Source: a phage. From it: a stretch of 64,000 bases of DNA. Under the pieces are notes generated by a model. That model ran no database searches and was not told the origin of the DNA. It saw only the letters and a list, made by a program, of their open reading frames with translations. Both the position numbers and the translations under genes were made by a program. Below, piece after piece: positions 10,331-11,670 of the stretch (positions are counted from its first letter, which is position 1; every line of letters begins with the position of its first letter). The DNA lies in the NCBI GenBank assembly GCA_024572335.1, contig GCA_024572335.1_3052.1; one strand, 5' to 3'.

Positions 10331-11110
10331 TTAATTAAAAATATATACTTCATCAGTTCCATTCTTTTCTTTGGAATGATATATGTTAAAGACGTATTTT
10401 TTATTAAGATGCTTAACATTATATTTTTTAGACCATTCTTTAAGAAGAGTGTTTTCCTTTCCGTGATGCTCTAAAACATTCGACAGTCCAAATTTTATTC
10501 CTCTGTCATTTAAAGAATCTAAAAGATTTAAAAGGTCTTTTTCTTCTTCTTCTGACCAAAATTTATTATAATCAGCAACTGTTATGAGATACGGAGGATC
10601 TACATATACAAAATCGCCGTCTAGAATTTTGACATCTTTAAAATGCAATGAACTAAAGATTATTTTATCACAATTTTGCTTAAAGTGATTAAAGCGTTTT
10701 TCACTATTTTTGTTTATAGTTCTTTTTCCAAACGGAGTAGTAAAATTTCCTTTATCGTTTATACGAATCATATTACTAAATCCATGAAAATGAAGAACAT
10801 AAAGTAAAAGAGGATCTCTAGATTTATTATAATCTTCACGTAATTTCAAAAACTCTTCTTTTGATGTTTTTGATAGTTTATATTGCTTTATTACTTTTAA
10901 AACGTCATCCCATGATACATTAATAAGACGCTTATACATTTCAATAATTGGTTCTTGAATATCATTGGCCAATACAGGACCATTGACGTTCAAAGACACT
11001 GATAAACCTCCACAAAATAAATCCACGAATCTGTCATATTTTGGAAAGTGAGGCTTAAGTTCAGGTAATAATGACTGTTTATTACCTGTATACGCGATAG
11101 CTCCTAGCAT
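10331..11110 (-). CDS. dam: DNA adenine methyltransferase Dam
   Basis: 259 aa; DPPY catalytic motif (VYVDPPYL), FCGG SAM-binding motif. Confidence 0.85.
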
Positions 11111-11670
11111 TATATTCTCTCATTTATTGCAGCAAAAAACGAATTATATAATTCTTCATCATATGTATTTGATAGTAATACTAACACGTTTTGTGATTTA
11201 GCATATTCATTAAACCTTGCTTGGATGGTTGGATTATCAGTAAATGATTCTCTTTTTGTCCATTTATTACGTGGATAATATCCGCATGGCAAAAAATCTA
11301 ATATCATCAATGACACAGGGTTTTCAGTTTTTGTGTATTCTTTTAATTTCTCTTTATCTTCTAAATATATTCCAACCGAATCAATAGCTGTACCTCCACC
11401 AACTTGGTGTTTAATTTCAATTATATGCTTTTTACCGTTGCGAGAAATAACAATATCAAATCTTCTAGTACGCTTCTTAGTTATAAAATTAGAGCAAAAC
11501 AAATTATTTGATTTTTCAGTATCATCGGTTAAAACCATTTTTTCTTGATAACTAACTGAACAATCAGTGAAATATTCTTTTACTTTATTAAGTATGAAAT
11601 TTTCAACTACGGCAGATATTTTATATGAATCTCCGTTTAAAGCCATTTCATGCACAATTTTATTAATCAT
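11110..11670 (-). CDS. Hypothetical protein; possible PD-(D/E)XK-like nuclease fold
   Basis: 186 aa; motif FDIVIS...(12 aa)...IIEIK; start overlaps nothing, stop overlaps dam start; own early promoter and SD GAGGA. Confidence 0.5.

Follow-up and report, generated by a model that had tools for sequence, protein, structure and literature searches.

The Dam proteins of phages T4 and T2 are among the best-studied DNA methyltransferases; they are filed as orphan enzymes, and their purpose in phages with hypermodified DNA is unclear. Restriction-modification (R-M) systems are well known and virus-borne precedents exist, among them those of the chlorella viruses and the Mom-REase fusions of jumbo phages; for such viral systems a use against host or superinfecting DNA has been proposed (PMC2441816, PMC4081073; PMC7824862). 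Type II restriction enzymes are said to be rare on bacteriophages, and those of the DpnII/MboI kind cut GATC when it is unmethylated (PMC4081073). Here we describe the gene directly upstream of dam in a 64,000-nucleotide (nt) stretch of DNA (contig GCA_024572335.1_3052.1, henceforth the window) from a T2-like Tequatrovirus. This gene, the 186-codon open reading frame (ORF) ORF186, is called R below, and dam is called M. We find that R is inherited, moved and lost together with dam, and that its product is predicted to be a single-domain PD-(D/E)XK protein with an EcoRI/MunI-like fold of the alpha class and a canonical E...D...ExK active site. On balance we lean towards R being an active, methylation-sensitive GATC endonuclease that together with Dam makes up a type II R-M cassette borne by the phage.

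The two genes and the predicted active site are placed as follows.

11670..11110, minus strand: R gene, ATG to TAA, encoding a 186-aa PD-(D/E)XK type II restriction-endonuclease-like protein (phrog_8706)
11110..10331, minus strand: M gene (dam), D12-class N6-adenine methyltransferase, T2-type allele, DPPY motif present
11457..11410, minus strand: codons of the predicted catalytic core D72 ... E85-I-K87, invariant in nine homologues
11604..11602, minus strand: codon of the fourth acidic residue, E23, invariant in nine homologues

The initial annotation had pointed to a 186-aa ORF at 11110..11670 with a D-(12 aa)-E-x-K arrangement and a stop codon overlapping the dam start, and both observations hold. 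The motif runs on the minus strand from FD72IVIS to IIE85IK87, with 12 residues between the aspartate and the glutamate (D72-x12-E85-x-K87), while the R stop codon TAA (11112..11110) and the dam ATG (11110..11108) share base 11110, where the minus strand reads ATAATG. Many Escherichia, Shigella and Yersinia phages match the region at 97-98% identity. The window Dam matches PF02086 (E = 1.3e-50) and is 97.3% identical to T4 Dam and 99.6% identical to T2 Dam. R is annotated as "hypothetical" in every database source, and the function label of phrog_8706 is unknown.

R is inherited, moved and lost together with dam

A D12-class Dam gene lies directly 3' of every R homologue, either abutting it or overlapping it by 1-35 nt, in the seven lineages examined and at three loci. 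In MX01 (Dhakavirus) the R-Dam pair occupies the same locus as in the window. In the Klebsiella phage KPV15 (Jiaodavirus) the pair stands not at gene 61 but beside a DenB-like gene, between rIIB and a topoisomerase gene, and in a metagenomic T4-like contig it is found just 5' of rIIA (141..3844 of sequence L006). No homing endonuclease gene was seen beside the relocated pairs of KPV15 and the metagenomic contig. Further contigs with R-Dam pairs were also found.

2075..4322 of sequence L003: R-Dam pair in KPV15, after the DenB-like endonuclease IV gene near rIIB

Measured against the window pair, R and M diverge in step, with identities of 64/76, 56/72, 48/64, 42/62, 35/56 and 37/53% (R/M). We then counted the two genes over 50,697 phage records, with the following result.

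About 720 records: share the region between genes 56 and 61
182 records: T2/T4-type Dam at 90% identity or more
149 records: R and M contiguous
147-155 records: full-length R
None seen: R without Dam

Some 33 phage records hold M only, and about 540 Tequatrovirus records, including T6, are without a T-even-type dam. Other T4-like genera, too, include phages with M and no R; in one Aeromonas phage, dam comes after a denV-like gene. The count for R alone applies to the collections searched, which represent about eight independent lineages.

As in type II R-M systems, the nuclease gene thus adjoins the methyltransferase gene and is kept with it as a unit, and in these collections R never occurs without M, while M may stand alone. 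An M that can exist alone, an R that never does and a pair that comes, moves and goes together are what the genetics of a toxic endonuclease and its protecting methylase usually look like. This linkage to dam is the strongest evidence for an R-M-like functional tie. Such an arrangement had been suggested in the initial annotation, and the comparative genomics of the R-Dam pairs backs it far more strongly than the single gene overlap does. The accompanying remark that T-even Dam is normally an orphan applies to T4 and its close kin only; it does not describe some 149 of about 182 Dam-bearing records, which also carry R.

The distribution of R could also be that of a selfish, homing-type endonuclease that spreads the cassette through cuts at the empty site, or in cassette-less relatives, during mixed infections, in the manner of the T-even seg and mob enzymes and with no general restriction. 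R is patchily distributed between conserved genes: of the approximately 720 records with the region, about one fifth hold it. Compared with T6, the entire 1.47-kb unit forms a clean indel; among T4-like genomes the cassette occupies three loci; and T4 has SegF at a neighbouring locus. R is, however, without a GIY-YIG or HNH domain, and it is predicted to fold like type II restriction enzymes. The known T-even homing endonucleases are not tied to one neighbour gene, whereas R, at whichever locus it lies, is translationally coupled to a methylase and diverges in step with it. Moreover, a methylase partner would be sensible only if methylation blocks cutting, which is R-M logic, so that the two readings overlap. 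We consider a purely homing role improbable.

The segments by which phages with and without R differ are given below.

11194..11743 (550 bp): segment missing from T4, comprising the promoter, the ribosome-binding site and R codons 1-159 (alignment with AF158101)
10291..11758: whole R-M cassette as a presence/absence unit, with about 40 bp in its place in T6, between gene 56 and dam.1/gene 61 (blastn of the T6 locus)
11134..11139, minus strand: homopolymer of six Ts in R codons 178-179, its length varying between five, six and seven Ts

T6 is without the whole unit: its annotation runs gp56, dam.1, gp61, with neither dam nor R. T4 is collinear with the window through gene 61 and the dam.1 ORF, then shows the 550-bp gap and resumes with codons 160-186 and dam. 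The deletion junction lies at an ATC microhomology, and tblastn of R against T4 finds residues 159-179 only. The T4 remnant amounts to 27 codons, is non-coding, and corresponds to the conserved C-terminal helix of R. Since T4 keeps these 27 codons of the conserved C-terminus, it is the derived, deleted form. The converse, that the T2-type state arose by insertion, was rejected on account of the conserved C-terminal codons that T4 retains. Judged from this alignment, the "orphan" Dam of T4 is a relic, left over from an R-Dam cassette when R was deleted. The T4 remnant and the T2 allele share two substitutions and a T-run that is one base shorter. Miner and Hattman are said to have noted in 1988 that T2, compared with T4, has a 536-bp "insertion" 5' of dam, to which they gave no function.

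R has also decayed in phages that retain more of it. The T-run is five bases long in T2 and in the T4 remnant, six in the window and most phages, and seven in ES19, and a change in its length gives R different terminal residues and alters how its stop is coupled to the dam start. The T2 allele carries a T-run frameshift and ends in ...NSFLLQ after 181 aa, with its stop 13 nt before the dam ATG; the ES19 allele has the opposite frameshift and ends in ...NSFFCCNK after 183 aa. R calls are shortened to 142 residues in phage G29 and to 61 in KarlGJung. R has therefore been lost repeatedly with M kept, by deletion in T4 and by frameshifted or truncated alleles elsewhere. As a separate observation, the T-run of R resembles the homopolymer "contingency loci" of T2 and T4, which have been described in a study that does not mention the R gene (bioRxiv 10.1101/2025.10.21.683753).

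Predicted fold and relatives of R

An AlphaFold2 model of R built from seven homologues is confident (predicted local distance difference test, pLDDT, 79; predicted template-modelling score, pTM, 0.79). Its elements follow in the order two helices, three strands, two helices, strand, helix, strand, helix, which contains the alpha-beta-beta-beta-alpha-beta core of the PD-(D/E)XK superfamily. As in that superfamily, the predicted catalytic D...(D/E)-x-K residues lie on the second and third core strands, and they are kept across the R family: D72 is on the second predicted strand (67-77), E85 and K87 are on the third (80-88), and E23 is on the first core helix (15-33). In an alignment of nine homologues that are 29-64% identical to the window protein, E23, D72, E85 and K87 are invariant, and so is the block H88-Q89-x3-G93-T-A-I-D97-S98. 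A D-x12-E-x-K spacing could be due to chance alone, but its invariance, its placement on the strands and the purifying selection on the gene make it more than chance. The resemblance to PD-(D/E)XK nucleases first noticed in the motif is thus borne out by the model, in which fold recognition gives a restriction-endonuclease fold with an invariant catalytic set.

The selection on R was read from pairwise comparisons of the proportions of non-synonymous (pN) and synonymous (pS) differences. Against phage Lutter, R shows no non-synonymous changes at a pS of 0.027; against T2, pN is 0.005 and pS 0.047 (pN/pS about 0.1); against MX01, the non-synonymous rate (dN) is 0.29 and the synonymous rate (dS) is saturated. 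By this measure R is under purifying selection and is a real gene. We give little credence to the idea that R merely has a nuclease fold and serves another role, as a repair or recombination nuclease, a structure-specific resolvase or a DNA-binding regulator of dam, or that it is a decaying relic without present function.

Outside the R family, the only recurring signal in sequence searches is to DpnII/MboI. The best Pfam match is DpnII (PF04556), with E = 0.0045 for the window R and 8.3e-5 for the best member; four of the nine members are matched, and the match to R covers profile positions 152-235 of 278 only. The PADLOC model PDLC03548 gives E = 9e-5 for the window R and 5e-6 for the best member, and is a DpnII model because DpnII itself matches it at 8.5e-127. 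When the R family was aligned by hhalign to two DpnII alignments, the P values were 7e-4 and 9e-4 at a probability of only 24-26%, with the catalytic residues in register: E23 pairs with the invariant E152, RRFD72IVI with KRFD201FVI, and IIE85IK with LIE214VN. The probability was not raised by adding plasmid homologues (28-55% identity) to the DpnII alignment, and the control alignment of the R family to EcoRI gave P = 0.27. A search of a viral structure library with the AlphaFold2 model of DpnII returned the MX01 homologue of R at rank 5 (E = 6e-3). With its 186 aa, R does not have the full-length architecture of DpnII (about 280 aa, with an N-terminal helical region). Since the scores are below threshold and the N-terminal part is absent, R is probably a remote relative of the DpnII catalytic domain and not a member of the family.

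The R family itself is small. A HMMER profile search of 1.84 billion representative proteins gave 11 matches, nine of them R family members or fragments; the two weakest, P0016 and P0017, are long repetitive proteins matched in short repeated stretches only, and the search revealed no sequence intermediates between the R family and DpnII. Neither 185,579 bacterial and archaeal species genomes nor 5,426 complete E. coli genomes yielded a relative of R, and from IMG/VR came two genomes only, both of already-known phages. The family profile had zero matches among PDB sequences at E <= 10, an NCBIfam scan of R gave noise only, and a literature search by topic and protein accession returned nothing on the R gene. 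As far as these searches reach, the R family is tiny, minimal in length (186 aa) and restricted to T4-like phages.

Expression and surroundings of the R-dam pair

Gene 61, R, dam and gene 56 follow one another in this order on the minus strand. The neighbouring genes and the signals around the pair are as follows.

12995..11967, minus strand: gene 61, primase
11770..11970, plus strand: 66-aa ORF with two hydrophobic segments (phrog_2024), named "dam.1" in the T6 record
11804..11785, minus strand: terminator-like hairpin ATGGCATTAACAAGTGCCAT then TAATTTTTGT, just 3' of gene 61, 5' of the R promoter and antisense to the dam.1 ORF (consensus match)
11724..11696, minus strand: probable early promoter of the R-dam unit, GTTTAC/TTTACT-17-TATTAT, TG-extended, of T4-early type (consensus match)
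11682..11678, minus strand: Shine-Dalgarno sequence GAGGA, 7 nt 5' of the R ATG at 11670 (direct sequence reading)
11262..11233, minus strand: possible internal sigma-70-like promoter TGGACA-18-GATAAT, 10/12 matches, inside R and about 120 nt 5' of the dam start (weak consensus match)
10285..9752, minus strand: gene 56, dCTPase

With a terminator-like hairpin after gene 61 and a promoter match before R, R and dam look like an early transcription unit of their own, and the record of phage Lutter has a promoter annotated at the equivalent position. R is translationally coupled to dam and co-transcribed with it, probably from this early promoter. The consensus scan that gave the internal promoter returned no more sites than in shuffled sequence.

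Several features of the surroundings are worth recording. Just 5' of the dam.1 ORF are an AGGAGGA ribosome-binding site and a late-promoter-like GATAAATA, and the ORF overlaps the gene 61 stop by 4 nt; it is kept in T4, where it is unannotated in AF158101, and the edge of the T4 deletion falls exactly at the dam.1 promoter. In T4, segF lies between soc and gene 56 (107..781 of sequence L001), near the site of R loss; the window phage is without segF there and has other small ORFs after gene 56 (9752..10285), the neighbourhood being a presence/absence hotspot. The window Dam differs from T4 Dam at residues 20 and 26, where T4 has ELKSHFPKYNRF, and R-bearing phages appear to carry the T2-type Dam allele. 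T2-type Dam is reported to methylate more completely than T4 Dam.

Proposed function and comparison with known systems

If R is the restriction half of an R-M cassette, it would be a Mg2+-dependent and probably homodimeric endonuclease that recognises GATC, the site of Dam, and cuts only when the adenines are unmethylated, as DpnII and MboI do. The DNA of the phage itself would be safe, because it arrives methylated, would be re-methylated by the co-expressed Dam, and also carries glucosylated hydroxymethylcytosine (glucosyl-hmC). The targets would be unmethylated GATC DNA in the infected cell, either that of co-infecting or superinfecting phages or other under-methylated foreign DNA. The cassette may also act selfishly, as R-M systems do.

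Several findings weigh against this proposal. All DpnII matches of R lie below curated thresholds (16.8 bits for PF04556, where the gathering threshold is 23), the hhalign probability is low, and the N-terminal part of DpnII, about 145 residues, is without a counterpart in R; the assignment of GATC specificity therefore rests mainly on the linkage to Dam. The observation that R never occurs without M comes from about eight independent lineages, most copies being near-identical. The C-terminal frameshift of laboratory T2 and the truncated alleles elsewhere indicate that R is dispensable. The glucosyl-hmC DNA of T4 already resists 94% of type II enzymes (PMC7653180), so that Dam may be unneeded for self-protection, which weakens the classical R-M logic. 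Finally, the hosts (Escherichia, Shigella, Yersinia, Salmonella and Klebsiella) are Dam+, and host DNA would thus be protected and offer no obvious target.

The last point would suit a nuclease that reads methylation instead of being blocked by it, cutting or nicking GATC by the logic of DpnI, at fully methylated sites, or of MutH, at hemimethylated ones. Such an enzyme might attack the Dam-methylated, cytosine-containing DNA of the host and spare the glucosyl-hmC DNA of the phage, a use to which the predicted early co-expression with dam would be suited, or its nicks in freshly replicated phage DNA might serve repair or recombination-primed replication. Linkage to Dam suits any enzyme that reads the Dam mark. 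We judge a methylation-reading nuclease unlikely.

A possible, if doubtful, form of the R-M cassette is that of an inter-phage weapon, in which R cuts unmethylated GATC even in hmC or glucosyl-hmC DNA. Phages of the T2-like, R+M+ kind would then destroy Dam-less relatives like T6, and M-only phages, T4 for one, would be "cheaters" that had given up the poison but retained the antidote and with it their immunity. Of the Tequatrovirus records in which the region is shared, some three quarters are of the Dam-less, T6-like kind. By a wide margin GATC is the 4-bp palindrome most depleted in the window, with 73 sites observed and 202 expected from trinucleotide frequencies (observed/expected, O/E, 0.36); the next most depleted, TCGA, has an O/E of 0.70. 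In T6, which has no dam and no R, 10 sites are observed and 23 expected in 8 kb (O/E 0.43). Within the pair, there are no GATC sites in the R gene and two in dam. The depletion fits warfare between phages and is no proof of it. If true, this use would provide T-even Dam with a function and account both for the GATC depletion and for the variable T-run, which may switch R on and off.

Should R and Dam indeed form an R-M pair, T-even Dam would have arisen as the protective half of that pair and would still be so in most natural isolates, T4 being the exception. An R-M pair on a virulent phage, carried by about 150 sequenced phages that include therapy candidates, would be a new player in phage-phage competition, and R would add a very small (186 aa) restriction-enzyme family found in T4-like phages only. 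Relative to the searchable literature, what appears new is the restriction-enzyme-like partner of the classic T-even dam in most dam-bearing phages, the putative status of R as a minimal family restricted to T4-like phages, and the probable origin of the T4 orphan Dam as a deletion relic.

Among known enzymes, DpnII and MboI resemble R in the helix glutamate, the RFD-hVI strand and the hIE-h strand, all in register with R. Their partners DpnM and M.MboI are Dam-family D12 methylases, of the same kind as the partner of R, and some DpnII systems, for instance that of a Haloarcula plasmid, likewise have the nuclease gene directly 5' of a Dam-family gene. DpnII enzymes differ in having about 280-300 residues, as against 186 in R, and an E-V-N motif with an invariant lysine eight residues later, where R has the canonical E-x-K. 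They also differ in distribution: DpnII proper matches one of the 50,697 phage records, and R is found only in T4-like phages.

Among solved structures, the modelled R is most similar to EcoRI/MunI. Sequence homology to these enzymes, the GNAxER recognition motif of the EcoRI/MunI family included, was not detected, either in the PDB profile search or in the hhalign control. The short motifs E-x-K-H-Q and G-x-A-I-(D/E), the latter G-T-A-I-D-S in R, recall EcoRI, the only sequence of the two used in this comparison, in a resemblance that is without statistical support and may be chance. The partner methylases of MunI and EcoRI are different from Dam (GATC).

Other identities were considered and rejected. 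MutH is the closest relative of R neither in structure nor in sequence, which speaks against a MutH/Sau3AI-like enzyme. The winged-helix methyl-adenine sensor of DpnI is absent from R, a single domain in which all elements belong to the nuclease fold. For a seg/mob-like homing enzyme, only the patchy distribution fits; the PD-(D/E)XK fold and the constant coupling to dam do not.

Virus-borne type II R-M systems are alike in that the virus carries a nuclease together with a protecting modification, as in CviAI (GATC)/M.CviAI of the chlorella viruses and the Mom-REase fusions of jumbo phages. R showed no sequence relation to these chlorella-virus or Mom-REase systems, and two listed matches in the viral structure library, which we take for chlorovirus proteins, reach a TM-score of about 0.35. 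With a Dam+ host and phage DNA that is hypermodified as well, host degradation, unlike in those systems, is an unlikely purpose.

The last comparison is with the orphan Dam of T4. The window Dam (10334..11110) has PDLC03722, "orphan methyltransferase", as its best PADLOC model (E = 7e-183), and defence annotation pipelines will consequently report an orphan methylase and miss R. In sequence the two Dam proteins are nearly the same, as their 97.3% identity indicates; they differ in their company, for Dam is paired with R in the window phage and in about 149 of about 182 Dam records, whereas T4 keeps a 27-codon scar of R.
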